DNA of 64,000 nucleotides from a virus (taxonomy: Duplodnaviria; Caudoviricetes). Location of the stretch: IMG/VR virus record IMGVR_UViG_3300035126_000903, positions 32,001 to 96,000 of that record. One strand, 5' to 3'. The notes under the pieces were generated by a model that was not told the origin of the DNA, did not search any database, and saw only the letters and a program-made list of their open reading frames with translations. Each line of letters starts with the position of its first letter. The first letter of the stretch is position 1. The position numbers were made by a program, and so were the translations under genes. Below are positions 43 to 61,309 of the stretch, piece by piece.

Positions 43-306
43 TTAATCTTTGTATCTTCTCCATACCGCAGAACCATCAATACCATCTTTCCACATTCCT
101 TCGTCATTTTCCTTAACAGTTTTGAAGAATTCTTTAACTAAATCCAACACTTCTTTTTTATCCATTTTTACACCTTCGTAATATACATCATCTCTTTGAT
201 TTCTGAAGAATTCTTCAAAACGATTAAAACTACCACTAACATCAGATATATGTAATTTTTTATTACTTTTATCTAAGTTTTGTTCTAATTTTTTATCTTC
301 TTCCAT
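43..306 (-). CDS. Hypothetical cassette protein; reads through R'' as DVSGS
   Basis: ORF track; bounded by GTTAGTGGTA/TACCACTAAC. Confidence 0.75.
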   Translation of the reverse strand: MEEDKKLEQNLDKSNKKLHISDVSGSFNRFEEFFRNQRDDVYYEGVKMDKKEVLDLVKEFFKTVKENDEGMWKDGIDGSAVWRRYKD

Positions 307-367
307 TTTGTTGAATTTTATGTTAAAACTACATATATCTGAGTATCGTTATAAACAATAAAAAACC

Positions 368-727
368 TTAAAGTGGTGGTTCTAAATTGTCTTTTATCTT
401 ATCATAAGATTCTTTAATCGCTTCGGATAATACTTGTTCGATAGGTTTTTTACTATTTATAACAACGGATATATGAAATAAAAAATTAATAGATTCTACA
501 AACTTTCTAATTTCTTCTTCTGATTTACATTCTCGTTGAACAACACAAAATTCACCCCTAACTACTTTACAAGTTTGGGTTTCTATGTTGTAATAAAGTA
601 TTGGTAATCTACAAGGGTTTCCACATATCTCTGTATCTTCTTCACCTAAAACCCAAACTTGTTTTCCAGTGAATACATCAAGTATCTCACTAAAACCTAA
701 TTCTGTTAAATTTTGTGTTGTTATCAT
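368..727 (-). CDS. Hypothetical cassette protein
   Basis: ORF track. Confidence 0.75.
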   Translation of the reverse strand: MITTQNLTELGFSEILDVFTGKQVWVLGEEDTEICGNPCRLPILYYNIETQTCKVVRGEFCVVQRECKSEEEIRKFVESINFLFHISVVINSKKPIEQVLSEAIKESYDKIKDNLEPPL

Positions 728-784
728 CGTTCTGATTATTAATTTTTTACATTCATATATCCGCAGCCGTTATGTGTAATTTAT

Positions 785-1036
785 TCAAAAATAATCACGT
801 TTAAGTTGTTCCTCTTTAATTAGAATCTCCCTTTGTTCTTTCATTTGACCAATTACTTCATCGAAATTTTTACTCATTTGTCTTTCAAACTGATTTTCAT
901 TTTGGTAATCTAATGACACTTCGTGTTTAACATCAAATCCGTTTTCTCGTAAAAATTTCTTCAATAAGAAAATTAAACGTGATTTTCCACTCATTGCTCT
1001 ACCAGATACGGTAATAATTAATTTTTCCTTTTCCAT
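785..1036 (-). CDS. Small protein with P-loop-like motif
   Basis: IITVSGRAMSGKS Walker A-like. Confidence 0.6.
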   Translation of the reverse strand: MEKEKLIITVSGRAMSGKSRLIFLLKKFLRENGFDVKHEVSLDYQNENQFERQMSKNFDEVIGQMKEQREILIKEEQLKRDYF

Positions 1037-1065
1037 TTTATATTTGTTTTGAGTTTAATATAATT

Positions 1066-1100
1066 AAATATAAGAAATAAATTTTGATTTTCCAAATTTT
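1066..1100 (-). promoter_or_regulatory. Bacteroidota sigma-A-type promoter (related copies near 24443-24478 and 25646-25680)
   Basis: Minus strand TTGG-N19-TATATTTA. Confidence 0.6.
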
Positions 1101-1126
1101 TTATCAGGTTAACTTAAACCTACACA

Positions 1127-1182
1127 AATACAACATACTGGTGGGATATAAGTGGGTGTAAACTTCACAAATAAACGAGTTA
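1127..1182 (+). repeat. Conserved attC right-arm repeat ATACTGGT..TATAAGTGGGTG(T/C)AAACTTCACAAATAA..AGTTA (copies ~2078-2125, 2390-2446, 24504-24560)
   Basis: Four near-identical copies, each ending at a GTTA core site; 1079-1182 is duplicated at 24457-24560. Confidence 0.85.
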
Positions 1183-1191
1183 TAAGTAATA

Positions 1192-1341
1192 TTATTTTTT
1201 AATTGGTTTCTTCTTGTTCTTTTTAGGTTTTTTACATTCATCAAGTTTAGTCCCAGCCACATATTCAGCCATTTCGGGTTCATTATTAAGAAACCAATTT
1301 ATTCGGTTTATTTTTTGTTCTTGTGTTAATTCTATATTCAT
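1192..1341 (-). CDS. Hypothetical protein (start revised to MNIELTQ)
   Basis: ORF track; the upstream extension lies in the attC region. Confidence 0.55.
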   Translation of the reverse strand: MNIELTQEQKINRINWFLNNEPEMAEYVAGTKLDECKKPKKNKKKPIKK

Positions 1342-1439
1342 TTTTATTAAATTTATTTTGTTAAAAAAATAATACATACACATAACAAAGTGTATAAGTA
1401 ATGTGGCTAATAAAGTTTATCTGTAAGTTATGTGTAATG

Positions 1440-1739
1440 TTACTCACCATTATACTTAAATTCAAACAACTTTGGTTTTAATGTATTACCAATTGGTTGA
1501 ACGATTGATAAATCACTTGATGTTTCTCCGTGAATAACTTTCATTAAACCAGGTATTCCATAATTCTCAAATGTTATTTCATACAAATCGCCAAAAAATG
1601 ATGTATCATTATTACTAATTGTATGTGTTACTTCTATAACATACTTTTTTGTAGTTATCAATGATTGTTGTAAATTAATAAACCAAAGTTGTGTTCCACT
1701 TGGTATCACATACTTATCTCCAATTTTTACTTTTTTCAT
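1440..1739 (-). CDS. Hypothetical cassette protein
   Basis: ORF track. Confidence 0.75.
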   Translation of the reverse strand: MKKVKIGDKYVIPSGTQLWFINLQQSLITTKKYVIEVTHTISNNDTSFFGDLYEITFENYGIPGLMKVIHGETSSDLSIVQPIGNTLKPKLFEFKYNGE

Positions 1740-1830
1740 ATTTCATTTCTTTAATTTTAACTTTTTAAAATTTGTGAGTTCATTACTCCATCAATATCCA
1801 AGAAAATAACTTTTTGCACAGGTTTTGGAT

Positions 1831-2025
1831 TTAACTAATGGTTCTTTCAAAAACAATGAGATAACCTCCTCTTAGATGACTGCCACCACCTGTTGATATA
1901 TGTCGTGCTGTTACAGATACAATCAACCAACCATCTTCCAAGATTTTATCTATTTTGTCTTGAACATCTTTGTAAGATTCATCATCAGGAGTCACCAATA
2001 CTTTTTGTTCTTTAAGTGCTATCAT
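1831..2025 (-). CDS. Hypothetical protein
   Basis: ORF track. Confidence 0.7.
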   Translation of the reverse strand: MIALKEQKVLVTPDDESYKDVQDKIDKILEDGWLIVSVTARHISTGGGSHLRGGYLIVFERTIS

Positions 2026-2134
2026 ATTATTTTTAATTTAATCGTTCAAAGATATGACCTACAAACTCACCCCTCTGATACTGGTAGAGTATAAGTGGGT
2101 GTAAACTTCACAAATAAGCGAGTTAGCAGCAATG

Positions 2135-2335
2135 CTATGACTGCAAGCCAACACCATATCGTTTAAACCCATATTTCGTAAGTGTATAGTATTCTCCGTG
2201 TTCATTCACCCATTGATTAGGTCTTACTTCAATTAATCCTATTAGCCTTGCAAGTGCATCATATAAAGCACTGCTGCTAACATCGTATTGCTGAACATTG
2301 CCAGCTTCATCGGTAATTTCAACTTTTACTTTCAT
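2135..2335 (-). CDS. Hypothetical cassette protein; reads through R'' as DVSSS (start revised)
   Basis: Bounded by GTTAGCAGCA/TGCTGCTAAC. Confidence 0.65.
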   Translation of the reverse strand: MKVKVEITDEAGNVQQYDVSSSALYDALARLIGLIEVRPNQWVNEHGEYYTLTKYGFKRYGVGLQS

Positions 2336-2443
2336 ATCAATATTTATTTTTATTAAACATTTGTCTTTCAATTTAACTTAATACTACACAAATACAACAT
2401 ACTGGTAGCGTATAAGTGGGTGCAAACTTCACAAATAAGCGAG

Positions 2444-2650
2444 TTAGCAGCCATAATCAGAACAGACCGTTTCAAAGTCGTTCATAACAGCATCTAACAA
2501 TTCCCATTTATCAGGATTACAACTTGTTGAACCTACCAGCAAAAATTGAATTGCTATATCGTGTTCAGTTGTATGTTGACCTTTTTCGGCAAATCTTAAT
2601 CTTTCTGATTTAAGTGCCTCAATCAATTTTTGTTTTCTTTCTTCGTTCAT
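2444..2650 (-). CDS. Hypothetical cassette protein (start revised to MNEERK)
   Basis: The ORF-track extension is a translation of the attC site. Confidence 0.7.
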   Translation of the reverse strand: MNEERKQKLIEALKSERLRFAEKGQHTTEHDIAIQFLLVGSTSCNPDKWELLDAVMNDFETVCSDYGC

Positions 2651-2679
2651 ATTTTTAGTATTAAATTTTACAAAATTAC

Positions 2680-2816
2680 GGCTGCTAACACACGTTTGGC
2701 GAAAGTGGCGGTTCAGTGCTCCGCAGACACATTTGTGGTTAATCAAACATTGGTTCTCCGCATCGGCTTTTGTGGTGAAAATCGCCACCTTCGCCGAGCG
2801 TGGGAACATTATGTGC
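2680..2816 (+). repeat. Full-length Bacteroidota-type attC site
   Basis: GGCTGCTAAC-ACACG-TTTGGCGAAAGTGGCG...CGCCACCTTCGCCGAG-CGTGGGAAC-ATTATGTGC; GC-rich imperfect palindrome. Confidence 0.8.
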
Positions 2817-2820
2817 AAGG

Positions 2821-3021
2821 CTACAATTCGTACTTTGAATAAAAGGCAACCTCACCATCATTTACCCATTGGTCAATTAAGTCGCTAACATCATTAATGT
2901 ATTGTTCATTTTTACCTGCTAATTTAGTTGCTTTTAGATTTTCCCAAAATTCACCACTAAATTCATCCATATTATTCATGTAGTGAACAACAATTTCAAG
3001 TTTCTCTTTTAAGTTTTCCAT
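2821..3021 (-). CDS. Hypothetical cassette protein
   Basis: ORF track. Confidence 0.7.
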   Translation of the reverse strand: MENLKEKLEIVVHYMNNMDEFSGEFWENLKATKLAGKNEQYINDVSDLIDQWVNDGEVAFYSKYEL

Positions 3022-3114
3022 TTCGTATTTAAATTAAATTTTGTGGTTAATGAAAAGTCAGTGCATTTAAGCCTCCACTGACAGCAAGCGGCAAAACGTT
3101 AGTGATAATAAAAA

Positions 3115-3360
3115 TTAAATCAATCCTTGTTTCTTTAACATATTTACGATTGCCTTTGCTGCTGCCTTAACTGAATCAGGGTCTGTTTCCATATCACCCT
3201 CTTTCATAGAATAAGGCACATATCGTAAATATACTTCACTATCAATTATATCTTTAATCATATCAATAAGTTCTTGCTCATTTTTACTATCACTAACATC
3301 AGATATATTCAAGTTTTCTTGATGTTCATTGAGACTTTGTATGTGTTTTAAATCTTTCAT
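3115..3360 (-). CDS. Cassette protein with capsid-targeting-like leader (MKDLKHIQSLNE) and DVSDS read-through
   Basis: Bounded by GTTAGTGATA/TATCACTAAC. Confidence 0.7.
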   Translation of the reverse strand: MKDLKHIQSLNEHQENLNISDVSDSKNEQELIDMIKDIIDSEVYLRYVPYSMKEGDMETDPDSVKAAAKAIVNMLKKQGLI

Positions 3361-3369
3361 CTTCGTAAA

Positions 3370-3561
3370 TTAGTTTTTAGCTAAACTAAGAATATAATCA
3401 GCATCATTTTGTGTTGATATTTTCCCCTTTATTAGTAATTTATCATAACCTGTATAAAGTTCCCATTTATCATCATACAACAAAACATAATGTTCTCCGT
3501 TTGATTTATAACCCCCAACATATGCCCCCTTTTTTAATACGATTAATTTTTTCATATTCAT
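3370..3561 (-). CDS. Hypothetical protein
   Basis: ORF directly downstream of promoter repeat. Confidence 0.7.
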   Translation of the reverse strand: MNMKKLIVLKKGAYVGGYKSNGEHYVLLYDDKWELYTGYDKLLIKGKISTQNDADYILSLAKN

Positions 3562-3569
3562 TTTTTTAA

Positions 3570-3627
3570 CTTACATAGTAAAGATACAACAGAAAACCCA
3601 TATTTCCAAGCTTTCAATATTAAATTA
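3570..3627 (-). promoter_or_regulatory. Repeated ~60-bp phage early promoter (copies at ~7060, 8063, 8997, 9613, 9778, 36604; variants ~34795, 44036)
   Basis: Minus consensus AAAGCTTGGAAATATGGGTTTTCTGTTGTATCTTTACTATGTAAG = TTGG-N19-TATCTTTA, mostly 6-15 nt before an ATG. Confidence 0.8.
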
Positions 3628-3646
3628 TCGTTAAATTTATCCACAT

Positions 3647-4147
3647 TTATTTACACACCAAATGCCTCTTTACCTTTTTCTTTACTACACCCCCCACAAT
3701 AATATCATAATCCTTATTATCCATCACCCAGTCCAAATCAATCGTTGTAGCATAGTACGAACCCGAAGATGAAGATTTCCAATCCCCCTTCAGTAAACTC
3801 GTCCACATAAAAAACCACTTTATCCCACCACCACTATCATCGTATGATACTAAAAGATAATCCGAAGCACGCTTTGAATACTCACCACCCCTCCAAATAT
3901 GGGTAGTTTTTGAGGTCTTAATCTCCAATGGAATACCACCAACCACCAAATCCGGTTCGGAATCCAGACGGGGCGAAACGCATTGCGGAACAACTTTGGC
4001 AAACGAAGCCTCCAATATATTCGATATCAACTCCGATTTTAATTTCGTTGATAGTGAATCGTAATCCACTAACCCCCTAAATGTATAAAACCGATTGGTG
4101 GCCTCCCCCACCACATCATTAATCCATAATCGTATCGTTTCGTTCAT
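3647..4147 (-). CDS. PD-(D/E)xK restriction endonuclease-like protein
   Basis: EPDLVVGGIPLEIKT motif. Confidence 0.55.
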   Translation of the reverse strand: MNETIRLWINDVVGEATNRFYTFRGLVDYDSLSTKLKSELISNILEASFAKVVPQCVSPRLDSEPDLVVGGIPLEIKTSKTTHIWRGGEYSKRASDYLLVSYDDSGGGIKWFFMWTSLLKGDWKSSSSGSYYATTIDLDWVMDNKDYDIIVGGVVKKKVKRHLVCK

Positions 4148-14843: not shown

Positions 14844-15025
14844 TCAAACTAATTTACATGTACTCTATCCTCTTCATCAAATAAATCTTTACCCCAATAA
14901 TCAATATCCCCTATCCAAACGATGGAAATGGGTATTGTTATTAGGAGTATAATTAAGAAAGTTATCATAGGTAAAGTTATTTAATTGTTGGGTGTGATTG
15001 ATAGTTACTTAATTGTAGGTATTAT

Positions 15026-15226
15026 TTACAACGACTTACGTATATAAGCAGTGTGTTTTTTTACTATATTAGCTAATTCAACAACATCACCTGTTGGATT
15101 TTTGATAGCCATATCTGCTACTTTATCTAAAATATTAAGACTTCTACTAATTATATCTAAGTTACCTTCATTCATCACCCCAGAGATTTCTTCTCTAATA
15201 ATTTGCTGTAATTCTGATTTTTTCAT
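15026..15226 (-). CDS. Leader-family protein (MKKSELQQIIREEISGVMNE)
   Basis: Leader like the MKVSQL family; ATATTTAT motif upstream. Confidence 0.7.
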   Translation of the reverse strand: MKKSELQQIIREEISGVMNEGNLDIISRSLNILDKVADMAIKNPTGDVVELANIVKKHTAYIRKSL

Positions 15227-15253
15227 GTTTACCTTTTTTATTATAAATATTAA

Positions 15254-15490
15254 TCAATTCAAAATGCGTACATCAGATTCAGTTTCAATAACCACTCTTG
15301 CCCCACAAGAAATTAAAGGTTTTACATCATCCCCAGCACCACAGTAAGTTATTTTACTTGGTCCCAATATCTCCACTTCATTACAATAGGTGTTTTTTCT
15401 ACCCTGTTTAACTGTAATAACAGGTAAATCAGTTCCTTTAGTTTTGTTGGAACGAATGTGGTGTTGGTTGACGTGTATTTTAGTAATCAT
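15254..15490 (-). CDS. Hypothetical protein
   Basis: ORF track. Confidence 0.75.
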   Translation of the reverse strand: MITKIHVNQHHIRSNKTKGTDLPVITVKQGRKNTYCNEVEILGPSKITYCGAGDDVKPLISCGARVVIETESDVRILN

Positions 15491-15495
15491 ATCTA

Positions 15496-16068
15496 TTAAT
15501 CCTTATCATAATACTCCCACACCTCTTCCAATTGTGATGGGTCAACAACAAATGATTCCCAATCATCTTTTCCTACCTCAACATCCTTAACATCAATGTA
15601 AAATGTTTTAGGAACAAAAGGAAATGATTTAACATACCCCTTCTTTCCAACCATTTTACTTCTATCGCCTGATTTGTAATCTTCTTCATTTAACCACGCC
15701 ATCCCACTCCAACAAATCCCATTTTGGTCTCTTTTAATAATTGCGTCTATGTAGTAGGGTTTTTCATCCTTTCCATCTTTAAATAAAGCAGAACATCTCC
15801 TGTTTTGATACCAAGATCTTCCATCCCCGAAATCATTAACATCACCCCATTCTTCATCTTTACCTGTAATAGGTAGTAAAGGTTCAAAGTTGGCAAGTTT
15901 GTTAAAGATTGAAGCAACATATGGAGCAGACATACCCGAGTGTCCTTGTTTAGAGAACACTTCAATAAGTTCCATTACAGCCTCTCCAATTAAACCTCCG
16001 TAATCGGAATCTTCATCAAAGTAACCGGCTGCCTGTAATTCTGTTTTTGCGTAATTTGTTAAACTCAT
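15496..16068 (-). CDS. Hypothetical phage protein
   Basis: FSKQGHSGMSA, PLLPITG.DEEW. Confidence 0.8.
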   Translation of the reverse strand: MSLTNYAKTELQAAGYFDEDSDYGGLIGEAVMELIEVFSKQGHSGMSAPYVASIFNKLANFEPLLPITGKDEEWGDVNDFGDGRSWYQNRRCSALFKDGKDEKPYYIDAIIKRDQNGICWSGMAWLNEEDYKSGDRSKMVGKKGYVKSFPFVPKTFYIDVKDVEVGKDDWESFVVDPSQLEEVWEYYDKD

Positions 16069-16087
16069 ATTTTTTTAATTTTAATTT

Positions 16088-16303
16088 TTAAATCAACCCG
16101 TGTGATTTTAATCTTTCCAACGCCCGGTTAAAATTCTCTTCGGCGGTTGATTCTATATCTTGATAGTCAGATGATGAATCTGCGTAAAGAATCGTCCACC
16201 CATTTTTTCCCGATTCGATTGTAATACCCATCCCGGTCTTGTCTTTTATCCTCTTGATGATTTCTACTTCATTTGAAGGCATCATTCCCATAAATCTTTT
16301 CAT
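16088..16303 (-). CDS. Hypothetical protein
   Basis: ORF track. Confidence 0.7.
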   Translation of the reverse strand: MKRFMGMMPSNEVEIIKRIKDKTGMGITIESGKNGWTILYADSSSDYQDIESTAEENFNRALERLKSHGLI

Positions 16304-16331
16304 ATTTTTTTAATTTTAATTTTTAAATATA

Positions 16332-16601
16332 TTACTCCCCTATCCAATGGTCATCTAGTTCATCTATGCCTGAGTCAACTTGACTTTTAAATTTTTCTAA
16401 TTCAAAGTTGTCAATTATATTGTTGTCTGTTTCAAGAGTTTCAAATCGTAGCTGACCTGACCCATCCCCATCAACAACGACCGGAATTGTGCGGGTCGCA
16501 CCGACATTTCCAAGATACTGTATCTTAGCAAAAAGATTTAGAATTTCACTAATTTCTGATTTTCCGCCAGAAATTTTAACATTGATGTAATATTTTTCCA
16601 T
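16332..16601 (-). CDS. Hypothetical protein
   Basis: ORF track. Confidence 0.7.
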   Translation of the reverse strand: MEKYYINVKISGGKSEISEILNLFAKIQYLGNVGATRTIPVVVDGDGSGQLRFETLETDNNIIDNFELEKFKSQVDSGIDELDDHWIGE

Positions 16602-16603
16602 TT

Positions 16604-17416
16604 TTAATTTGAAAGCGGTAATTTAATTGTTGGGTGTGATTGATAATTTTCTAATGTAAAATCATTAGGTGAATAATAAGGTAAGCAATCACCTTCTTTC
16701 CACTTTACTTCATCCTCAATTTTTAATGTAGGTAAATCAAATGGTTCTCTTGTCAATTGTTCTTTAATACCTTCAATTTGATTTAAGTAGATGTGTGTAT
16801 CTCCCAAATTTCCTATAAGTTCATCAGGCACCATATTAACCTCTTTTGCGATGATTTCTAATAGTAACCCGTAACTTGCGATGTTAAATGGTAATCCAAG
16901 TGGGGTATCTACTGAACGTTGATTCCACATTAAAGAGATTGCTCTGGTTGGGATGTTATACATTTCAAATTCAGGATTATAAACTCTACTATTAACACCC
17001 AATGTTTGACGTCGTCCACCTCCTGCTTTATTAAGTAATTCTATCCGTTCTCCTTTACTCAACTCTCTTGTATAAACTTGAAATCCATAATGACAAGGTG
17101 GAAGAACCATATTCGGTAAATCGTGTACTGCCCAAGCACTCACAACCATACGCCTAGAATCAGGGTTTTCTTTTAATAACCTAATCAACTCAGATATTTG
17201 GTCTACACCTTTTTTAAAGTTAATTATATCTTGACTTCCATCTCTTTCTAAACCAATATGTAATGAAAATTCACCTCCCCAATCTCTCCATTGCTTACCA
17301 TACACGGGCCCGAGTGACCCCCACTTCCTAGCAAACTTATCATCGGTTTTGATTTTGTTGATGAATTCTTCTTGTGTAAAAGGTCTTCCATCTGGATGTA
17401 AATGTTCTTTATTCAT
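16604..17416 (-). CDS. thyA: Thymidylate synthase, C-terminal (catalytic) part of split gene
   Basis: LGPVYGKQWR, PDSRR, LPPCH, QRSVD.PLGLPFNIASY, GDTHIY. Confidence 0.93.
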   Translation of the reverse strand: MNKEHLHPDGRPFTQEEFINKIKTDDKFARKWGSLGPVYGKQWRDWGGEFSLHIGLERDGSQDIINFKKGVDQISELIRLLKENPDSRRMVVSAWAVHDLPNMVLPPCHYGFQVYTRELSKGERIELLNKAGGGRRQTLGVNSRVYNPEFEMYNIPTRAISLMWNQRSVDTPLGLPFNIASYGLLLEIIAKEVNMVPDELIGNLGDTHIYLNQIEGIKEQLTREPFDLPTLKIEDEVKWKEGDCLPYYSPNDFTLENYQSHPTIKLPLSN

Positions 17417-18380
17417 AACTTTTTATTTTGTTTTTTAATTGTTCTAAATCAATATGACATTTTTTACTTTTAACTCTATTATCATACCATTCTAACATTT
17501 GTAAATTACACTGATGACTGATAATTTCAGGTTCTACATTATTCAAAAACCCTTCAACAATTGAATATTTATGGTCTAGTTGAAATCCATTTTTACCATT
17601 TGTCACTCTTTCTAAATTATTAGGATTTATGATATTTTTGTATTTATTATAAGTTGATTCCGTTAATTTTTTTACCTTCTTTCTATAAATTTGGTAATCA
17701 GATAGAAATTCGTCTGGTATTACCCACCCTCTTTCTATTTTTGTTTTCATAACATTATCAATTCTCATTTCAGGGTTTATATTGGCACTATTATCAACAC
17801 CATATTTTTCTTTTAACACTTCTTTTATTTTTTCTTTAATTTCTTCTGACTTAAATGGATTATCTACACCATACTTTTTAATCCAAGTGTTTAATGCTTT
17901 TTGTTTTATTGCTTGATTGTGAAACGAATGTTCAACCCCATACCTTAAAATCATAGTAGATTTCATTTTATTTTTCAATTCAGAACTTTGTAGTGTGTAA
18001 CCACCATATTTGGTGTTAACCGTTTCAGTTCTTTTTTTATTTCTCACTATTTTTTCTACTTCGGATAAGTTATCGTATTTTTCTCTTAATTTATTTTTCG
18101 TTTGTTCAGAGTTGTTATTACATTTTGCTGAGCAAAACATTCGGGTTAAATCAATTATTGGTTTATTACAGTTTATACATACGTTGATTGATTTTTTTTC
18201 TTTTAGTACGTACCTAACCCTATCTACCAATTTTGGATTATGCAAATCCAAAAATTTAGTGTTATCAATTATTTCTTGTTCCAGCGAATCATCAATTACT
18301 CTCAACTTTTGAGATAATATTTTATATTCGTTATTTCTCAATATACAAAGTGTTGACTGAATTTTACTTTTTATACACAT
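17409..18380 (-). CDS. Putative free-standing homing endonuclease inserted in thyA (start revised to MCIKSK)
   Basis: CINC..FCS..C zinc motif, KYGV(D/E)N repeats, C-terminal LDHKYS..H.CNLQM..N HNH-like motif. Confidence 0.7.
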   Translation of the reverse strand: MCIKSKIQSTLCILRNNEYKILSQKLRVIDDSLEQEIIDNTKFLDLHNPKLVDRVRYVLKEKKSINVCINCNKPIIDLTRMFCSAKCNNNSEQTKNKLREKYDNLSEVEKIVRNKKRTETVNTKYGGYTLQSSELKNKMKSTMILRYGVEHSFHNQAIKQKALNTWIKKYGVDNPFKSEEIKEKIKEVLKEKYGVDNSANINPEMRIDNVMKTKIERGWVIPDEFLSDYQIYRKKVKKLTESTYNKYKNIINPNNLERVTNGKNGFQLDHKYSIVEGFLNNVEPEIISHQCNLQMLEWYDNRVKSKKCHIDLEQLKNKIKSYE

Positions 18381-18418
18381 TTTGGTTTCTTTTATAATAA
18401 ATATATGAGAAACCAAAA
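18380..18418 (-). promoter_or_regulatory. Hairpin over the endonuclease start with an ATATTTAT motif in the loop
   Basis: TTTTGGTTTCT (18380-18390) / AGAAACCAAAA (18408-18418), 11-bp perfect inverted repeat. Confidence 0.65.
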
Positions 18419-18425
18419 AAAGTCA

Positions 18426-18743
18426 TTATTCTTCATTATTTTTTTCCAACCTTTCACACTCTTTCAAATAAGAACGGTAAGCGTCTCCTACCCAAATGTT
18501 ACAATCGTTGTCTAAGAGATACTTTATTGATGTATCACCCCGTAAGAACCAAAGTAACTCTACCACAATTCCTTTGAAATACATCTTCTTTGTAGTTAAT
18601 AGTGGGAAACCATCTTTCATAGAATGACGGATTTGTCTACCGAATACTGATAGAGTCCCCGTACCTGTCCTGTCTTTCTTTTCAACTCCATTACCAAGAA
18701 TGTATTCTAGGAGCATTTGATATTCTTTATCTAATTTATTCAT
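18426..18743 (-). CDS. thyA: Thymidylate synthase, N-terminal part of split gene
   Basis: [31 protein letters not shown]. Confidence 0.92.
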
Positions 18744-19023
18744 AACTTTCTATTATTTTATAACTATCAAATTTTAACCATACCTCATCTTCATTTAGGT
18801 TTAGTGTTGGGGAACAATTATTTAAAATACCAGACTCGCAAATTCTTTTATATTCAACATCTTTCACATAATCTGATTTAGGTATTTGTCCATATCCAAG
18901 ATTACATTTTTTTTGCCATTTATAAAAAAAAATCACATCTTGTTCTTCAGATAGAGGTATAATAAATTTTCTTTCATCATTATATCTACCCTCAAACCAT
19001 TTTTCATTAATTTTAACTTTCAT
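18736..19023 (-). CDS. Hypothetical protein ending ESYE
   Basis: Coupled by AAAGTTATGAATAA junction. Confidence 0.7.
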
Positions 19024-19417
19024 AACTTTCTATTGTTTTATCGTTGTATGTTACTGTGATTAGTTTGGTTGGTACATTGTGTTTGTCGCACATATAATTA
19101 GCAAAATCAAATTCTTCCATATTAGGTGTTAGGTCAGCTATCTTCCATCTTTCCATCATATCTAACTCTCGTTCTTCAATCTTTAATCCCCACCTTTCAG
19201 AGAATTCTGTATCGGTTTTACATTTGTTGATGAATTCTTCTTTTGTTAGATGTCTAGTTGGGTGCGGGGATACGATAGAACGACCAATACGAATACACCA
19301 ACCTTTGTATAAATTTTGATAAAGTATGTTTGTATGATGGTCTTGTATTGTTGCTAATGGATAATTTGTGTATGTCTCATAAACCTCATCCAATAATTCT
19401 TGTTGTTCTTCATTCAT
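19013..19417 (-). CDS. ThyA-derived miniprotein 1
   Basis: EEFINKCKTDTEFSERWG, REL..ER, NVPTKLITVTYN. Confidence 0.75.
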   Translation of the reverse strand: MNEEQQELLDEVYETYTNYPLATIQDHHTNILYQNLYKGWCIRIGRSIVSPHPTRHLTKEEFINKCKTDTEFSERWGLKIEERELDMMERWKIADLTPNMEEFDFANYMCDKHNVPTKLITVTYNDKTIESYES

Positions 19418-19607
19418 AACTTTCTAATTTAATCATTGCAAAATATTCAAATTCGGGTATAGTGAATTCTTCTGTCCTACCAGGCGTAGAATTTAAGTAC
19501 TCAACAATCACCTTATCTTTTGTTACATCTTTAACAATCATTGATACAGGTGCCAATGACCCTAAGTCTAAATTGAATTTTTTGCCAATTAATTGTTCTT
19601 TATTCAT
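19410..19607 (-). CDS. Hypothetical protein ending ESYE
   Basis: ORF track. Confidence 0.7.
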   Translation of the reverse strand: MNKEQLIGKKFNLDLGSLAPVSMIVKDVTKDKVIVEYLNSTPGRTEEFTIPEFEYFAMIKLESYE

Positions 19608-19956
19608 AACTTTCTACTATTTTATCGTTGTATGTTATTGTGATTAGTTTACGTGGCACTCCTCTTTTATCTAAAGTTTCATGATGATCAGGGTATTCAC
19701 CAAATAAATCATCAAAATGTATATCGTATTTTTTTCTTTCTCTAACAGTTGTCAAATCTCGTTCTTCAATCTTTAATCCCCACCTTTCAGAGAATTCTGT
19801 ATCGGTTTTACACTTGTTGATGAATTCTTCTTTTGTTAGTAATTGTCCTTTACTATTAATATAGTCTTTCGGTGGGTTAGATTTTTTCATCGGGAAATTA
19901 TTCTTGAAATTCTTATAAGCATCATCAATAATCCGATTGTATCTTTCGTTATTCAT
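19600..19956 (-). CDS. ThyA-derived miniprotein 2
   Basis: DDAYKNF, EEFINKCKTDTEFSERWG, VPRKLITITYN. Confidence 0.75.
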   Translation of the reverse strand: MNNERYNRIIDDAYKNFKNNFPMKKSNPPKDYINSKGQLLTKEEFINKCKTDTEFSERWGLKIEERDLTTVRERKKYDIHFDDLFGEYPDHHETLDKRGVPRKLITITYNDKIVESYE

Positions 19957-20299
19957 AACTTTCTATTGTTTTATCGTTGTATGTTATTGTGATTAGTTTA
20001 CGTGGATATAATGCTGTACTTCCTTTCAACATTGGATTATTTTGATCTACTTGTTCCAAAATTGTTTGTTCTTCAATCTTTAATCCCCACTTTTGGGAGA
20101 ACTCACTATCGGTTTTACATTTATTGATGAATTCTTTTGGTGCGTATTGTCTATATACTTTCTTTATTTCACCTGTACCTAAACACATTCCATCTAATTC
20201 CTCTAGTGATACTAAATCATCTGTACGGAACATAGTTTGAGATTGATATTTTTTATACACCTCATCCAATAATTCTTGTTGTTCTTTATTCACCCTCAT
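19949..20299 (-). CDS. ThyA-derived miniprotein 3
   Basis: KEFINKCKTDSEFSQKWG, PRKLITITYN. Confidence 0.75.
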   Translation of the reverse strand: MRVNKEQQELLDEVYKKYQSQTMFRTDDLVSLEELDGMCLGTGEIKKVYRQYAPKEFINKCKTDSEFSQKWGLKIEEQTILEQVDQNNPMLKGSTALYPRKLITITYNDKTIESYE

Positions 20300-20528
20300 T
20301 GTCTCTTAAATTTTTAAGTTCTTCAATCACATTATTATTCATATCAGTAACAAAATCTCTTTCTAACATGTTCCTCAATGCTTGTTCGGCGTCTAAACCA
20401 TATTCATTTGTTGCTAATTCAATACACTCATCATCTGATTTGTTATGCCAAAATGATAGATGTTCGAAAAATGCTTTAGCATCAATAATAATTGTTTTTC
20501 CTCCTTCGTTATTCATCGCGGTGTTCAT
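20286..20528 (-). CDS. Hypothetical protein
   Basis: ORF track. Confidence 0.65.
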   Translation of the reverse strand: MNTAMNNEGGKTIIIDAKAFFEHLSFWHNKSDDECIELATNEYGLDAEQALRNMLERDFVTDMNNNVIEELKNLRDNEGE

Positions 20529-20801
20529 TTTCGTGGTTCATTTTCATAGAATTCTTTGATGAAACTAACCACTTCATCGGGGACTGGTATCATACCACCG
20601 TAACTTGTCTCATGTTCCATTAGACCTCTGACCAATAAATCTGCTATCCAACCTGAATATTCAGGTGATATGTTCAATTCTAACTTATTCATAACTTTTT
20701 ATTTTTTAATAAATTTGACCATATTTTTATTACCATATCTCTTCTTGGGGATTGTTTTAACATTTTCCATCTGTTAATCCAATGTTCTATTTCTTCTTTA
20801 T

Positions 20802-21176
20802 TCATAACTTTTTATTTTTAAATCCTTCAATTAACAGGGAAGCTGTTGCGTAATTTGTGGCAAGAGGTATGTTGTAAACATTACAAACCCTCAGTAACAT
20901 ATTCACATCTACAATGTGTGGATGAACAGCAAGTGGGTCTATAAAGAAAACAACACCATCTATCTCACCTTCTGCTATCATACTTGCTATTTGAGCATCA
21001 CCACCCAAAGGACCTGATTTCTTTTTAATGACTTGAATACCGGCGTGCTCTATGTGGGTGCCGGTAGTTCCGGTGGCAATGATTTGGTTATTTTTGAAAA
21101 AGTCTAACCTCTTCATAATAAAAGCAACCATGTCTGCTTTCTTACCATCGTGTGCTATAACTGCTATCTTCAACAT
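20802..21176 (-). CDS. mgsA: Methylglyoxal synthase
   Basis: IAHD.KK, ATGTTG, SGPLGGDAQI, FF.DP..PH..DV..L.R.C, PLATN. Confidence 0.93.
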   Translation of the reverse strand: MLKIAVIAHDGKKADMVAFIMKRLDFFKNNQIIATGTTGTHIEHAGIQVIKKKSGPLGGDAQIASMIAEGEIDGVVFFIDPLAVHPHIVDVNMLLRVCNVYNIPLATNYATASLLIEGFKNKKL

Positions 21177-21193
21177 ATGTAAATATACGAAAT

Positions 21194-21475
21194 TTATTTC
21201 ATATTTACAATATTTTCTATCATTTTTTTTAAATTTTTACTTTGAATTTTTACTTTTATTACCCCGTCCCCCTCTACACTAACCCCGTCTGATATAATAC
21301 TTTTTAATAAAGATAATTCAGTTTCGCTTATTTTATTTTCCACAGGTACTAATTCTATGTTTATTTCCATAACCTTTTCCTTTTGATAAAAATAATATTT
21401 GGAGGTATTAAACCTTATAATTTTATCATAATTTAACAAATTCCTCACAGATTGAATCAATTTTACGAGGTTCAT
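21194..21475 (-). CDS. Hypothetical protein (start uncertain)
   Basis: ORF track. Confidence 0.5.
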   Translation of the reverse strand: MNLVKLIQSVRNLLNYDKIIRFNTSKYYFYQKEKVMEINIELVPVENKISETELSLLKSIISDGVSVEGDGVIKVKIQSKNLKKMIENIVNMK

Positions 21476-21492
21476 AACTACAGTACTCCATA

Positions 21493-21684
21493 CTATACAA
21501 CCTCAATCTCACCAACTCTATATTTTCTACCAGTTGTATCTGCTTCAGCAGCCCGTCTTGCAAAATCCTCTGCTTCTTCCAATGTATCAAAATCATCCAC
21601 CAAATCATTTTCATCTAATTTGGATACCCACATTTTTGGACTTTCCAATAATAATTGCTTATAAACTCTGTATTTAATTGCCAT
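21493..21684 (-). CDS. Hypothetical protein
   Basis: ORF track. Confidence 0.7.
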   Translation of the reverse strand: MAIKYRVYKQLLLESPKMWVSKLDENDLVDDFDTLEEAEDFARRAAEADTTGRKYRVGEIEVV

Positions 21685-21693
21685 AATATTTCC

Positions 21694-22446
21694 TTATTTT
21701 ATTTGCCCTGCTTTTTTCAGCATTCTTGCAGTTTCAATCCATTTTTTACCTATTGGGTTATATATAGGCCTTCTAATAAATTCATTTACAGCTTTTTGAA
21801 CTGCGTTTGGTGGTGGACCATATGTGGTATTATCAATAATTCTATAATCCTTTGCACCAAAAAGAGTTTGAAACTTACCCATATTCTCTTGGCAATCTTT
21901 CCAAATAGAAGTAACCAAATTTTCAGGTAATGTTCTATCTCTCCCAGCATTTCTTTCCTTTGCTACTTCTAACGATGTATTAACAAAAACCATCATACAA
22001 TCATACCCTAATGATTCAGCATGTTGTTTTTGCTTTTTTATTTTAGCAAAATCATCCCCCGTACCATCTATTATCATACCCAATCTACCCTCTTCATAAA
22101 ATGCCCTTTGGGCTTGTGTTATTTTCTTTGCCCTATCTCTAATTCCACCAGGAACAGCAGTTATTGTAGCCCATAATTCGGGTTCTTCTCTTTCAATTCT
22201 ACCCAAATCTTTTGGGTTTATACCATTCTTTTTTAATTGAGATTCAAAAGCAGTATCAGAATTAATTACTTTTAAACCTGATTGAGCAAAGGATGCTTTA
22301 TATTTTCTATCTATACCAAATATTTCTTCGGATGTAAAAGATTTTCCTGAACCAGGCCCACCTGCCATGAATACGCATTTTAATATTCCTGGATCATCAA
22401 CTCCCTCTGTAAGGATAATTCTTTTTAGTATTTCTCTCAATTTCAT
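21694..22446 (-). CDS. P-loop kinase (zeta-toxin/AAA_33-like) with leader MKLREILKRIILTE
   Basis: MAGGPGSGKS, IIDGTG, RNAGRDR. Confidence 0.8.
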   Translation of the reverse strand: MKLREILKRIILTEGVDDPGILKCVFMAGGPGSGKSFTSEEIFGIDRKYKASFAQSGLKVINSDTAFESQLKKNGINPKDLGRIEREEPELWATITAVPGGIRDRAKKITQAQRAFYEEGRLGMIIDGTGDDFAKIKKQKQHAESLGYDCMMVFVNTSLEVAKERNAGRDRTLPENLVTSIWKDCQENMGKFQTLFGAKDYRIIDNTTYGPPPNAVQKAVNEFIRRPIYNPIGKKWIETARMLKKAGQIK

Positions 22447-31975: not shown

Positions 31976-32250
31976 CTCAATTTAATTTCACGTTCAACTT
32001 CAACCCAAAAATTAGAAAGAGGATGATTAGCCCAATAAGCCGTTTCGGAATCTAAATCATCTTTTTTCATAAACTCAAAGATTTCGTTTACAATTGCTAA
32101 TGCACATTCTTTATAATGTGGGTTGGTTGGAATCGGTTGATATTTACCTGTGTTTAAGTCTAATTGTTTGCTTCGACTAAACATAACAGATTCTAACAAC
32201 TGGTCTGCTTTTTCTTTGGGTGTAATCCCTATGGGTTTGTATTTTGTCAT
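31972..32250 (-). CDS. TPKEKA-family phage protein
   Basis: Paralog of 8393. Confidence 0.75.
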   Translation of the reverse strand: MTKYKPIGITPKEKADQLLESVMFSRSKQLDLNTGKYQPIPTNPHYKECALAIVNEIFEFMKKDDLDSETAYWANHPLSNFWVEVEREIKLR

Positions 32251-38651: not shown

Positions 38652-41511
<2,860 letters not shown>

Positions 41512-58707: not shown

Positions 58708-59561
58708 TATTTAACTAATTTTTCGGTTATTTTTATAGCAGCGCAATTTATTATATCTAAATTTCCAGCATATTCTGGTAGGTAGTCACCACTACCCCTA
58801 ACTCTGATGCTCATAACTATAATTCCATTTTCTTCTGTTGGTGGTAAGATTAATTCATAATGGGGTATATATTTTTTTAATTCTTCTATTTTTTCTGTAA
58901 TTTTCTCAATTAAACCATTAAAATTAATATTTTTTGATTTAACAAACATAGTAGTTTGCATATCAACACATGGTTCAGCGGGATTCAAGTTTAAAATTAC
59001 TTTTGTATTATCACAGTTTGTAAATTGATTGATGGCTTTTTGTGTAGTTTTTATATAATTATCTATGTTTATTCTAGTAGCCATACCAGCACTTTTAGAT
59101 GCTATTTGGGATACAATTTCTATATATTCAATTCCACTGCAATATTTAGATAGTAAATACAACATAGGAATAGAGGCTTGCCCACCACAAGTAATCATAT
59201 TAACATTACTTTCATTTAAAATAATATCCCCATTTACATCAGGCACACACATTGGACCTACTTTAGCCGGAGTTAAATCCACTACTTTAATTCCCTGATT
59301 TTTGAAAATTATAGAATGTTGTAGCGCATCTTCAGCATTGGTACAATCATATACAATATCGCAACAATTGGGGTTATTAATAAAATAATTAATTCCTTCA
59401 TTAGTTACATTAATTCCTTTGGCTTTAGCAATTTCAATTCCATCCGAATCTAATCTTCTTCCGGCAAATACAACAAGTTCAATAAAATTTGTTTTAAGAA
59501 TTTTAAGAAGTAAATCAGTACCTATGTTTCCTGTGCCTAGTATAGCAGCTTTTATTTTCAT
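58707..59561 (-). CDS. dmpF: Acetaldehyde dehydrogenase (acylating)
   Basis: GTGNIGTDL, DLTPA, NMITCGGQA, YAGNLDI. Confidence 0.92.
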   Translation of the reverse strand: MKIKAAILGTGNIGTDLLLKILKTNFIELVVFAGRRLDSDGIEIAKAKGINVTNEGINYFINNPNCCDIVYDCTNAEDALQHSIIFKNQGIKVVDLTPAKVGPMCVPDVNGDIILNESNVNMITCGGQASIPMLYLLSKYCSGIEYIEIVSQIASKSAGMATRINIDNYIKTTQKAINQFTNCDNTKVILNLNPAEPCVDMQTTMFVKSKNINFNGLIEKITEKIEELKKYIPHYELILPPTEENGIIVMSIRVRGSGDYLPEYAGNLDIINCAAIKITEKLVK

Positions 59562-61309
59562 CTTATTATATGTTCACTTTGTTTATTAATACCACTAATC
59601 ATAGCTTCTTTTATTTCATTCAAGGATAGTAAAGGAGACATTTCTTCTAATAACCCTGCTTTAATACTATTATCATTTTGCTTTATACCCCGTACTTTGG
59701 GGATAAATTCTTGCTCAGGATTCATAAATACTTCCATTATAGCTTGTCCTTCATACTTTATAAAATCATCCATTTTATCATCTGTAAAGTACTCATAATC
59801 AAAAGCCATAGCTATTTTTTTATAATCAGGAAGTTCAACCCCCGTATTTTTATCTACACATGTTTTGTGGTTTTGAAATAGCATTTTTTGCGTATGTTTT
59901 ATCATTAAATAACCATCATTATTAAAAATAATAATTTTAACTGGTAGGTTAAATGTTTTTATAGTTTGAAGTTCTTGTAAATTCATCATCATACCACCAT
60001 CGCAATTAAGACACAAAACGGGATTACTCCCAAACCCAGCACCAACGGCTGCTGCTAATCCATAACCCATTTCTCCCAATCCTAACGAAGTAAACATTTT
60101 TTGGTTAGATTTAATATTAAAACCATAAAACCCACTCAGTAAAGCAGTTCCCATATCGGTAACAATCGTATAGTTATCAGGCCATGCTTTTGATAATTTA
60201 TCAATAAAAGTATATGAATTTTTAGGGTCTAACAAATGCTCTTTCATTACTATTGGATAATCTGCTTTTATTTTATTGCAATATTCTCTCCAATTTTGTA
60301 TATTTAATTTAATATTAGATTTTAATTGAATAAGTCCTTTTAAAATAAGATTAACATCTATATTATAATTTTTTCCTTTAAATTTTTTAGTTTCGGTAGG
60401 GTCTATATCAATATGAATTATTTCAGCATTAGGGGCAAAATTTTCTCTTGAATATCCTGTTTGAAGTAATGATAATCTGCTACCAAATACTATAATTAAA
60501 TCACTATTTTGGACAATGAAATTAGAAGCTCGTTGTCCTTGTACTCCTGGTCTTCCAAAATTATTTTGGTTACTTGTTTCTAATAAATCTATAGCAGACC
60601 AACTTAATACTGTTGGGATTTGGTGGTTTTCAATAAAGTTTTTAAATAACTTTTCAGAATTGGATAATTTTACCCCGTGCCCCCCTAAAATTAAAGGTCT
60701 TTTTGCTTTATTAAGTTTTTTAATTATATATTCTACCTCTTTAATTGGTATTTCTTTCTCCACATTTAGGATGGTAAAATCTTCAAAATGCACATTTTGG
60801 GATTGAGTATCAAATGGAATTTCCAAATAAATAGGGCCGGGTCTTCCACTAGTAGTAATATTAGAAGCTAATGATAATGTTTTAAATATATTTTCTTTGG
60901 TTATGCGAACTGATAATTTTGTGTGGTTTTTATATGTTTTTACAGAATCATACCCTTGAATACCATACATTCTCATATTTTTATATTCATCAATATAGTA
61001 TGTTTGTTCCTGACCAGCAATTATAATTCCCGGAATAGAATCGGCCCAATTTGATAAAATACCGGTGAATGCATTAGATGAACCTCCTCCTGCTGTTACT
61101 AATGCGGCTGATAATTGGCCTGTTGTTCTGTAATAAGCCCCCATAGCCATTACTGCAGCTTGTTCATGATGAGTGGGGATTAGTTTAATTTTTTTATTTC
61201 TACTAATAGAATCAAAAATATGAGAATTAGCAGAACCTATTATACCAAAAACTACTTTAATGTTATTTTTAATTAAAAAATTAACTATAACATCGCTTAT
61301 TTTTACCAT
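59558..61309 (-). CDS. ThDP-dependent acetolactate-synthase-like enzyme (YerE-like)
   Basis: HEQAA.MA, GRPGP, GEMGYGL, CDGGMMMNLQEL..NNDGY. Confidence 0.88.
   Translation of the reverse strand: MVKISDVIVNFLIKNNIKVVFGIIGSANSHIFDSISRNKKIKLIPTHHEQAAVMAMGAYYRTTGQLSAALVTAGGGSSNAFTGILSNWADSIPGIIIAGQEQTYYIDEYKNMRMYGIQGYDSVKTYKNHTKLSVRITKENIFKTLSLASNITTSGRPGPIYLEIPFDTQSQNVHFEDFTILNVEKEIPIKEVEYIIKKLNKAKRPLILGGHGVKLSNSEKLFKNFIENHQIPTVLSWSAIDLLETSNQNNFGRPGVQGQRASNFIVQNSDLIIVFGSRLSLLQTGYSRENFAPNAEIIHIDIDPTETKKFKGKNYNIDVNLILKGLIQLKSNIKLNIQNWREYCNKIKADYPIVMKEHLLDPKNSYTFIDKLSKAWPDNYTIVTDMGTALLSGFYGFNIKSNQKMFTSLGLGEMGYGLAAAVGAGFGSNPVLCLNCDGGMMMNLQELQTIKTFNLPVKIIIFNNDGYLMIKHTQKMLFQNHKTCVDKNTGVELPDYKKIAMAFDYEYFTDDKMDDFIKYEGQAIMEVFMNPEQEFIPKVRGIKQNDNSIKAGLLEEMSPLLSLNEIKEAMISGINKQSEHIIR

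Follow-up and report, generated by a model that had tools for sequence, protein, structure and literature searches.

Core-deleted thymidylate synthase miniproteins upstream of thyA in uncultured phages: a large family whose variable inserts are exchanged with ThyA

What are the three small genes that lie upstream of thyA, the gene for thymidylate synthase (ThyA), in the phage genome IMGVR_UViG_3300035126_000903? The window analyzed here is a stretch of 64,000 nucleotides (nt), positions 32,001–96,000 of that IMG/VR record, and three related open reading frames (ORFs) in it, m1, m2 and m3, are called minis below. An earlier reading of the letters alone, here the original prediction, took them for pieces of ThyA and proposed that a variable surface module of the enzyme had been excised, amplified and diversified. 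The present analysis confirms that the three ORFs are core-deleted derivatives of the decorated ThyA of their lineage, which we take to have the enlarged small domain of the Lactobacillus casei enzyme. As for function, the reading we prefer, at roughly even odds (about 0.5), is that the minis are expressed, stand-alone carriers of the shuffled modules that also decorate ThyA, where translation, folding and binding are the inferred parts.

The homology is considered first. m1, m2 and m3 share 50–51% pairwise identity, with invariant blocks EFINKCKTD.EFS..WGLKIEE and P.KLIT.TYNDK..ESYE. The claim that all three align piecewise with the phage's own ThyA holds: the EEFINK segment matches the C-terminal piece of the window's ThyA (ThyA-C, Table 1) in BLASTP with expectation values (E) of 3e-8, 1e-8 and 2e-7 for m1, m2 and m3, respectively. 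The best 32-nt segment has 29 identities, as had been stated, and m1 19211–19255 is identical to thyA 17342–17386 at 38 of 45 nt. The second segment that had been proposed (KIEEREL..ER / NVPTKLITVTYNDKTIE against QVYTRELS..ER / NIPTRAISLMWNQRSVD) is weak or non-significant when sequences are compared singly (BLASTP E 0.002 for m1; m2 and m3 not significant) and is resolved by a family profile of 150 diverse members plus the three minis. Profile positions 20–73 match ThyAs on DAYKNY..insert 1..EEFINKIKTDDEFAKKWG (EEFINK..KWG) with independent E-values (i-E) of 1e-11 to 5e-15, and positions 72–131 match them on YGFQVYTRELSxxER..insert 2..NIPTRAISLMWNQRSVDT (..NQRSVDT), with i-E of 1e-7 to 1e-10. 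The two pieces are colinear, and their targets include ThyA-C and, from a cultured phage, the ThyA of Flavobacterium phage immuto. The suggested likeness of DDAYKNF to GDAYRSY is borne out by m2 residues 12–60, which match the intact immuto thyA at 45.5% identity (E 4e-4). Alignments of minis and of ThyAs, compared by hhalign, agree with a probability of 100%, with 124 columns aligned and a single gap that spans the ThyA core; the E of 9.7e-45 is inflated because the same insert-1 type occurs in both alignments.

Each mini retains the DAYxxY helix, variable insert 1, the EEFINK..WG helices joined directly to strand β-ii, a class-2 module (RELSxxER ... IPTK) and strand β-iii, after which the protein ends. 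In m1 these appear as an N-helix, a NYPLAT-type insert 1, handle B, insert 2 (ERWKIADLTPNM..) and handle C, where the handles are the conserved blocks flanking the inserts. Helices and strands stand in the same order as in ThyA (PF00303), whereas the catalytic Cys/PPCH, DSRR, the N-terminal core and the C-terminal half are absent; the original prediction of a missing catalytic region is thus upheld, as neither PPCH nor DSRR occurs in the three translations. None of the three matches any Pfam family at E ≤ 0.1, PF00303 included, or any PHROG, and the two thyA pieces of the window score 101.5 and 206.9 bits against PF00303. Without catalytic motifs or a Pfam match, the minis therefore cannot be enzymes. 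A derivation of the mini residues MNKEQQELL from the N-terminal helix of ThyA (MNKLDKQYQ.LL) was considered and set aside as a guess, the profile alignments beginning at DAYxxY.

A very large, unannotated family descends from the decorated ThyA of this phage lineage, with inserts exchanged at the handles. A search among proteins of similar length with m1 yielded 5736 candidates, among which 5714 clusters (90% identity) reached E ≤ 1e-3; among the matches listed (120 clusters), none has a Pfam domain, and the sole name is "hypothetical protein". An exhaustive profile search gave 492 representatives (50% identity), 308 of them at E ≤ 1e-10, and the best 150 are 84–208 amino acids (aa) long. In 50,697 phage records, tblastn with m2 found no mini, its 4 matches all being thyA of immuto phages, and the sole megablast match of 16000–21200 was 52 nt of thyA in Flavobacterium immuto phages. 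At least half of the sampled words of 18400–20320 are held by each of 20 runs labelled lake-water or freshwater metagenome, from 20 studies; the window's own sample might be among them. The decorated ThyA belongs to a lineage of phages that are uncultured and come mostly from freshwater. Searches of openly available literature, mostly at the level of titles and abstracts, turned up no account of miniproteins derived from ThyA or of hypervariable inserts in ThyA.

A scan of IMG/VR gave 79 distinct loci which, with the window, reduce to 65 distinct gene sets, 47 of them with at least one mini; the loci were found via EEFINK-type patterns, and their proportions are therefore not a census. Insert-bearing thyA is present at 25 of the 47 mini loci, only an insert-less 276-aa thyA at 6, and no thyA in the fetched stretch at 16 (seven of these have at least 5.6 kb beyond the last mini on the usual thyA side; the rest end earlier). 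The expected linkage to thyA is seen in relatives: at 29 of the 31 thyA-holding loci all minis lie upstream of thyA on the same strand, with one locus having them downstream and one on both sides. The gap between mini and thyA has a median of 625 nt (range 154–4007). Single minis occur at 24 loci, two at 13, three at 5, four at 3, five at 1 and eight at 1. Departures are found as well. In one 287-kb genome 30 kb separate the mini from thyA, and the three minis of a 217-kb genome (83% complete) come without any thyA match. L041, closely related to the window, carries a single mini, and thyA is missing between flanking genes that the two have in common. Eighteen distinct thyA loci have no mini within 6 kb. 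At L015, L023/L024, L032, L034, L035 and L038 the minis lie directly upstream of a canonical insert-less ThyA (276 aa, PF00303 205 bits), which is distant from the decorated form (BLASTP E 2e-6). To summarize, the relationship has two sides, a two-piece homology that reaches beyond the EEFINK segment and a linkage to thyA. The minis are colinear with ThyA minus its core, number 1–8 per locus and carry hypervariable inserts, and the idea of a surface module that was excised, amplified and diversified stands.

The inserts themselves link minis to full-length enzymes. A search of longer proteins with m1 finds full-length ThyAs at 70–76% identity (E ~1e-30), the match spanning 50% of m1, and these ThyAs carry the same 40-residue insert 1. 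Insert 2 of m1 is present in the ThyA P0333 and, in a related form, in the thyA of L044; compared with insert 2 of the L011 mini, its proportions of synonymous (pS) and nonsynonymous (pN) differences are 0.87 and 0.16, with pS saturated and no ratio (omega) given. Among 361 minis and 115 ThyAs (E ≤ 1e-3, at least 70% coverage), a mini counterpart exists for 32 of the 79 distinct thyA insert-2 sequences (28 at ≥60% identity) and for 36 of the 56 distinct insert-1 sequences (33 at ≥60% identity), the latter count being inflated by one dominant, over-sampled type. Insert-1 and insert-2 types combine freely. Several pairs show the exchange directly. At L012 a 125-nt tract that runs across insert 2 is 97.6% identical in a mini and the thyA of that genome, and outside it only 38 nt match, at 76%; this points to a transfer in one direction or the other. 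Insert 2 of an L039 mini is 98.8% identical to that of the L060 thyA (1 of 84 nt differs), and minis of L003 and L034 differ at 1 of 327 nt in their first 109 codons (99.7% identity) and then pass into insert 2 sequences that cannot be aligned. Recombinant or read-through forms exist: P0343 has a mini front and a ThyA back, P0344 a ThyA front and a mini end, and P0332 is a fusion of ThyA with the mini that follows. These pairs and the shared pool bear out the suspected exchange of inserts, which is recent and occurs among minis and with thyA, within and between genomes. Minis and ThyAs therefore draw on one common module pool.

The conserved blocks act as recombination handles. In these blocks 62 distinct minis use uniform codons, some of which are not typical of an AT-rich genome (TTC ATC AAC, GAG TTC, CGA GAG TTG AGT, ATC CCA ACC AAA CTA ATC ACA), and thyA uses the same ones at GAA GAA TTC ATC AAC AAA, AGA GAG TTG AGT and ATC CCA ACC. 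Among 29 distinct thyAs, the commonest codon at a conserved residue has a share of 0.61 in the N-core, 0.66 in the C-core and 0.77–0.87 in the four insert-adjacent blocks. Across 91 pairs of 14 loci the median pS is 0.70 for the thyA core, 0.45 for thyA handles and 0.43 for mini handles, and handle pS falls below core pS in 87 of the 91 pairs for both handle kinds. Within the window, handle B of m1 is 97.7% identical to that of m2 over 86 nt, and handle C is 93.8–97.9% identical to those of m2 and m3 over 48 nt. Lake-metagenome contigs placed on 16500–20600 give a similar picture: their summed depth rises from ~10–15 to 140–1080 over the thyA blocks around insert 2, and it reaches 35–160 on the EEFINK blocks (thyA and m1) and at the border between m3 and m2. 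The contigs stop or skip at the inserts, and in two runs they connect 16936 to 17078 with 27 other letters between. Depth peaks on the handles and breaks at the inserts, so many genomes of the community share the handles (at ≥90% identity) and not the inserts.

Such a pattern might also arise if the minis mattered as DNA, that is, as a library of templates for gene conversion of the thyA inserts, perhaps after a break made by a homing endonuclease. Tandem partial copies lie upstream of an expressed thyA and keep handles conserved at the nucleotide level, with the codons of thyA; the L012 tract is a conversion tract between a mini and its own thyA; the insert pool is common to both, with mini inserts unlike those of the resident thyA; and endonuclease genes lie in or beside thyA. 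The model for such an arrangement is found in bacterial antigenic variation, where pilE/pilS and vlsE are diversified by gene conversion from silent cassettes. The minis resemble these systems in having several partial copies beside the gene that is expressed, variable segments set between conserved flanks, and segmental transfer between cassette and expressed gene (the L012 tract; 32 of 79 insert-2 types shared). Silence, however, does not seem to apply to the minis, which read as complete, coupled ORFs under selection, with ATG starts. They keep a family-specific N-terminus as well as translational coupling, and their handles have diverged in protein from those of thyA (LKIEEREL in place of FQVYTREL; a 16-residue block in place of RAISLMWNQRSVDTF), near-identity to thyA beside each insert being limited to 12–24 nt. 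Also unlike the bacterial systems, the expressed gene here encodes a cytoplasmic metabolic enzyme of a phage, one with no clear reason to need variation, and the minis trade inserts with one another and can do without the enzyme gene: 6 distinct loci have them beside an insert-less thyA, and the 83%-complete 217-kb genome has them where no thyA was found. On balance we regard a role as DNA templates as an unlikely account of the family, though one that deserves a hearing. The recombination reservoir of the original prediction thus survives in part. Exchange of inserts between mini and thyA is directly seen; a purely silent reservoir is unlikely, because the minis are complete ORFs under purifying selection and are found, too, where no insert-bearing thyA is present.

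The preferred reading, of minis as protein carriers, turns on whether they look like proteins. All minis analyzed are complete ORFs with an ATG start and overlapping stop/start junctions, a completeness that is partly by construction, as ORFs were what was scanned; there are also half-minis with just the front part. Between minis, homologous inserts have omega values of 0.09–0.43 where computable, in small samples. The AlphaFold2 model of m1 (148 sequences) is a compact α/β structure with a mean predicted local distance difference test score (pLDDT) of 74 and a predicted template modelling score (pTM) of 0.61; pLDDT is 81–89 in the N-helix and 87–91 in handles B and C. Its helix and strand order is that of the corresponding part of the ThyA model (pLDDT 79, pTM 0.81). 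Insert 1 has low pLDDT in both models and is disordered in that of the mini. A VIA-align comparison of the mini model with 48,161 chains reached a best Z of 3.1, pointing neither to ThyA nor to another fold, and an ESM Atlas search with m2 gave no usable match. The predicted complex of ThyA P0291 (residues 25–422) with m1 scored 0.00 without control runs and is uninformative on binding either way. The handle strands LKIEERE and KLITITYN alternate hydrophobic and polar residues, as would suit a small soluble domain.

If the minis are proteins, which modules do they carry relative to the resident enzyme? A mini matches its own thyA at ≥50% identity in none of the 31 pairs compared for insert 1 and in 1 of 32 for insert 2, the latter being the L012 tract; minis within a locus match each other in 0 of 50 and 0 of 51 pairs, respectively. 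This non-redundancy fits a repertoire of specificities or a library of alternatives, and it argues against a decoy of the resident enzyme. Such a decoy, or a regulator, would be a mini protein that mimics the ThyA surface or dimer interface and so absorbs a sensing or inhibiting host factor or modulates dimers. The minis do carry ThyA-type modules, together with two strands (β-ii and β-iii) of what we take, from solved ThyA structures, to be the interface sheet, and they are linked to and co-oriented with thyA. But a decoy should copy its own enzyme, and the 0 of 31 and 1 of 32 matches disfavour the decoy for a ThyA sensor that had been suggested. In addition, the retained strands appear to have turned alternately hydrophobic and polar, which would befit a soluble domain rather than an interface mimic, and minis occur where no thyA is found. 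Decoy and regulator together are reckoned improbable.

The class-2 inserts have ends of their own: they start with RE(L/F)(S/T)xxER and finish with (I/V)P(T/K/R)(K/R). The class-2 insert of the window's thyA is identical in the thyA of L004. In 24 of 115 ThyAs an additional insert, 15 residues or longer and bearing these ends, occupies a third site immediately ahead of the conserved REPFxLP (examples are P0288, P0311, P0333, L001 4737–6008 and L044); 10 of these 24 match mini insert 2, 11 match thyA insert 2 and 0 match insert 1, and the family profile gives weak hits as well. In P0307, a 279-aa metagenomic protein known from a single contig, a ThyA-type insert-1 module (DGDAYKNY..KKWGELGP) sits within an unrelated protein, flanked by a duplicated EEAELKDWD. 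Thus, the modules behave as in-frame cassettes able to occupy new sites.

Mobility of another kind, which the original prediction had overlooked, is seen in the window's thyA, which consists of two ORFs around a homing-endonuclease-like ORF of 335 aa. The latter matches PHROG homing-endonuclease families (E 1.6e-16 and 2.3e-11); a 10-nt gap precedes it, and it overlaps the 270-aa ORF by 8 nt. Both thyA pieces keep conserved ThyA motifs. An Rfam scan of 15000–22000 at E ≤ 1 returned no family, and no group I intron was detected in thyA; the ends of the pieces are apparently too short for split inteins. With two thyA ORFs around an endonuclease ORF and no intron detected, this is therefore a gene in pieces. 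PMC2988022 describes how nrdA of phage Aeh1 was made a gene in pieces by the free-standing homing endonuclease mobE. The likeness is one of two ORFs cut by an endonuclease ORF with no intron detected; it concerns the window's thyA and not the minis, and the split differs in lying in the variable insert of one allele that recurs with different endonuclease ORFs. All seven thyAs split at insert 1 (window, L042, L058, L068, L074, L076 and L079) share one insert-1 allele (..YLKECEKLKK..* / M..K.DLHxxGRPxTKEEFINK), and none of the intact thyAs in the sample of 115 has it. In six of these seven the gap contains an ORF, and the ORFs are of four kinds: 335 aa (DUF7487), ~240 aa, 204 aa and 284 aa. The gap of the seventh, L076, holds no ORF of 80 aa or more. 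The close relative L004 has an intact thyA with a separate DUF7487 endonuclease ORF immediately upstream. At L039/L040 (7286–9379), the interruption of thyA falls elsewhere, at profile positions 175/183. A duplicated insert-1 split module brackets this second break (..YEDYLKKVKK* and ..HEDGTPFTKEEFLQKLKTDKEF..), as though the endonuclease cassette had carried its coding flanks along.

Could endonucleases also have made the mini arrays? According to PMC13096335, the SegB endonuclease drives segmental amplification of neighbouring anti-defence genes in phage T6. The window shares with that account a set of tandem small genes adjoining a homing-endonuclease gene in a plastic phage region; it differs in that nothing here ties the endonuclease to amplification of the minis, and in relatives most mini arrays have no endonuclease-sized gap or ORF between minis and thyA. 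A broader form of the idea holds that the modules are selfish or neutral, namely mobile cassettes spread by endonuclease-induced repair, and that the minis are decayed thyA duplicates of no benefit. Class-2 modules with their own ends at two ThyA sites and in minis would fit it, as would the third-site matches to mini insert 2 (10/24) and thyA insert 2 (11/24), the P0307 module between duplicated EEAELKDWD, the duplicated split-site module of L039/L040 and the four endonuclease ORF types found at one thyA site. Neutral decay sits poorly, however, with purifying selection on the inserts and on mini-specific handle residues, with a very large family of intact ORFs, and with the lack of an endonuclease-sized gap between minis and thyA at most mini loci. 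We give this explanation only a slim chance.

The features of the locus are collected in Table 1. With a GC content of ~0.32 the window is AT-rich, and genes of the mini stretch and its surroundings lie on the minus strand. The whole IMG/VR record (135,671 bp, an estimated 74% complete) holds the three minis and the thyA pieces and no further minis. In the direction of transcription, from 21200 to 16600, the order is: a gene with an MGS-like domain, three tiny ORFs, m3, m2, a 65-aa ORF, m1, a 95-aa ORF and thyA. A near-orthologue of m3 directly follows the MGS-like gene in L041. The 65-aa ORF appears as a fusion with a mini in P0041, homologues of the 95-aa ORF adjoin minis in L004, L008, L045 and L070, and neither ORF has a Pfam or PHROG match. 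The stop/start junction AGTTATGAATAA stands at 17409, 18736, 19410, 19600, 19949, 20685 and 20798; at ≤1 mismatch it occurs 11 times in the window against 1.79 expected, with 7 occurrences at gene borders of a 3.4-kb stretch. It borders unrelated small genes, the endonuclease/ThyA-C border among them, and one metagenome contig connects 17429 to 19013. This suggests that the junction is itself a possible site of gene-cassette reshuffling. Upstream of the mini array, the MGS-like-domain protein (PF02142, E 3e-15) is encoded at 20802–21176 and a 250-aa P-loop (GPGSGKS) protein at 21694–22446; both genes are conserved in the close relatives L004 and L041. Farther off, a 583-aa ORF (59558–61309) has ~30% identity to acetolactate synthase large subunits in tblastn and a 540-aa ORF (39252–40874) matches the phage GroEL chaperonin family (E 8.9e-152), both being unusual phage cargo.

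Table 1. Coordinates of the minis, thyA pieces and neighbouring features in the window.
Feature	Position	Strand	Remarks
thyA C-terminal piece (ThyA-C), 270 aa	16604..17416	-	starts MNKEHLHPDGRPFTQEEFINK; PF00303 E 4.1e-61, profile positions 76-264
thyA class-2 module (RELSKGER..NIPTR)	16943..17068	-	between strands β-ii and β-iii
thyA handle TQEEFINKIKTDDKFARKWG	17318..17377	-	38/45 nt identical to m1; contig depth peak
Homing-endonuclease-like ORF, 335 aa	17409..18416	-	within thyA insert 1; Pfam DUF7487 E 6e-15
Stop/start junction AGTTATGAATAA, 7 copies	17409..20809	-	..SYE* overlapping MN..; gene borders
thyA N-terminal piece, 105 aa	18426..18743	-	PF00303 E 5.7e-29, profile positions 1-90
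95-aa ORF, between m1 and thyA	18736..19023	-	C-terminal ESYE; not a mini
Mini m1	19013..19417	-	134-aa ORF; profile matches
m1 handle C	19019..19075	-	homologue of ThyA strand β-iii (IPTRAISLMWNQRSVD)
m1 variable insert 2 (aa 91-114)	19076..19147	-	also in minis of L003, L004, L011
m1 handle B (LTKEEFINKCKTDTEFSERWG-LKIEERELDMMER)	19148..19246	-	ThyA small-domain helices fused to strand β-ii
m1 variable insert 1 (aa 17-57)	19247..19369	-	72-75% identity to insert 1 of full-length metagenomic ThyAs
65-aa ORF, between m2 and m1	19410..19607	-	C-terminal ESYE; not a mini
Mini m2	19600..19956	-	118-aa ORF
Mini m3	19949..20299	-	116-aa ORF

How, then, would the minis work as stand-alone carriers? 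We suggest that they are translated, soluble proteins presenting the same variable modules as ThyA, and that a phage would express several module specificities at once, with one thyA and 1–8 minis. The modules would be putative binding surfaces for variable partners in the host or in rival phages; recombination at the handles diversifies them, and each genome keeps a non-redundant set. Several points weigh against this proposal. RNA-library contigs cover 19055–19246 and 19211–19382 of m1, with 3 other letters each, but such libraries may contain DNA and this cover is not counted as transcription; by the same caution, lack of RNA cover in parts of the stretch is no evidence of silence. The mini model has no structural neighbour, the best Foldseek match in the PDB having an E of 0.78. 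If exchange is frequent, the purifying selection on inserts could have acted during their residence in thyA, and non-redundancy could reflect loss or instability of long direct repeats. Handle pS is only ~0.6 of core pS, so homogenization is moderate. Finally, the EEFINK-type patterns used to find loci bias the sample towards this lineage and towards thyA-containing contigs. A wider proposal is that ThyA, jointly with the derivatives that lack its core, makes up a recombination-shuffled display system of in-frame peptide modules with conserved ends of their own; the modules would pass from one thyA site to another, from thyA to minis or back, and now and then into other genes. It is tentative and, at present, possible rather than probable.

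Some consequences are practical. Shared handles break metagenome assemblies, and minis are liable to be mis-called as thyA fragments. The split thyA allele, with its different endonucleases, offers a natural system for the coexistence of an endonuclease and its target gene. More generally, thousands of unannotated sequence clusters in uncultured phages are now traceable to a housekeeping enzyme, and the family is an example of enzyme surface decorations freed as a small scaffold and then diversified via cassette exchange. It raises a testable question: what are the binding partners of the hypervariable decorations of ThyA, and why must a phage have so many? If the display system is real, it would give each phage a non-redundant, quickly reassorting repertoire of binding surfaces to use against hosts or rival phages, and phages would have their own version of a cassette-based repertoire system, with a housekeeping enzyme as its base.

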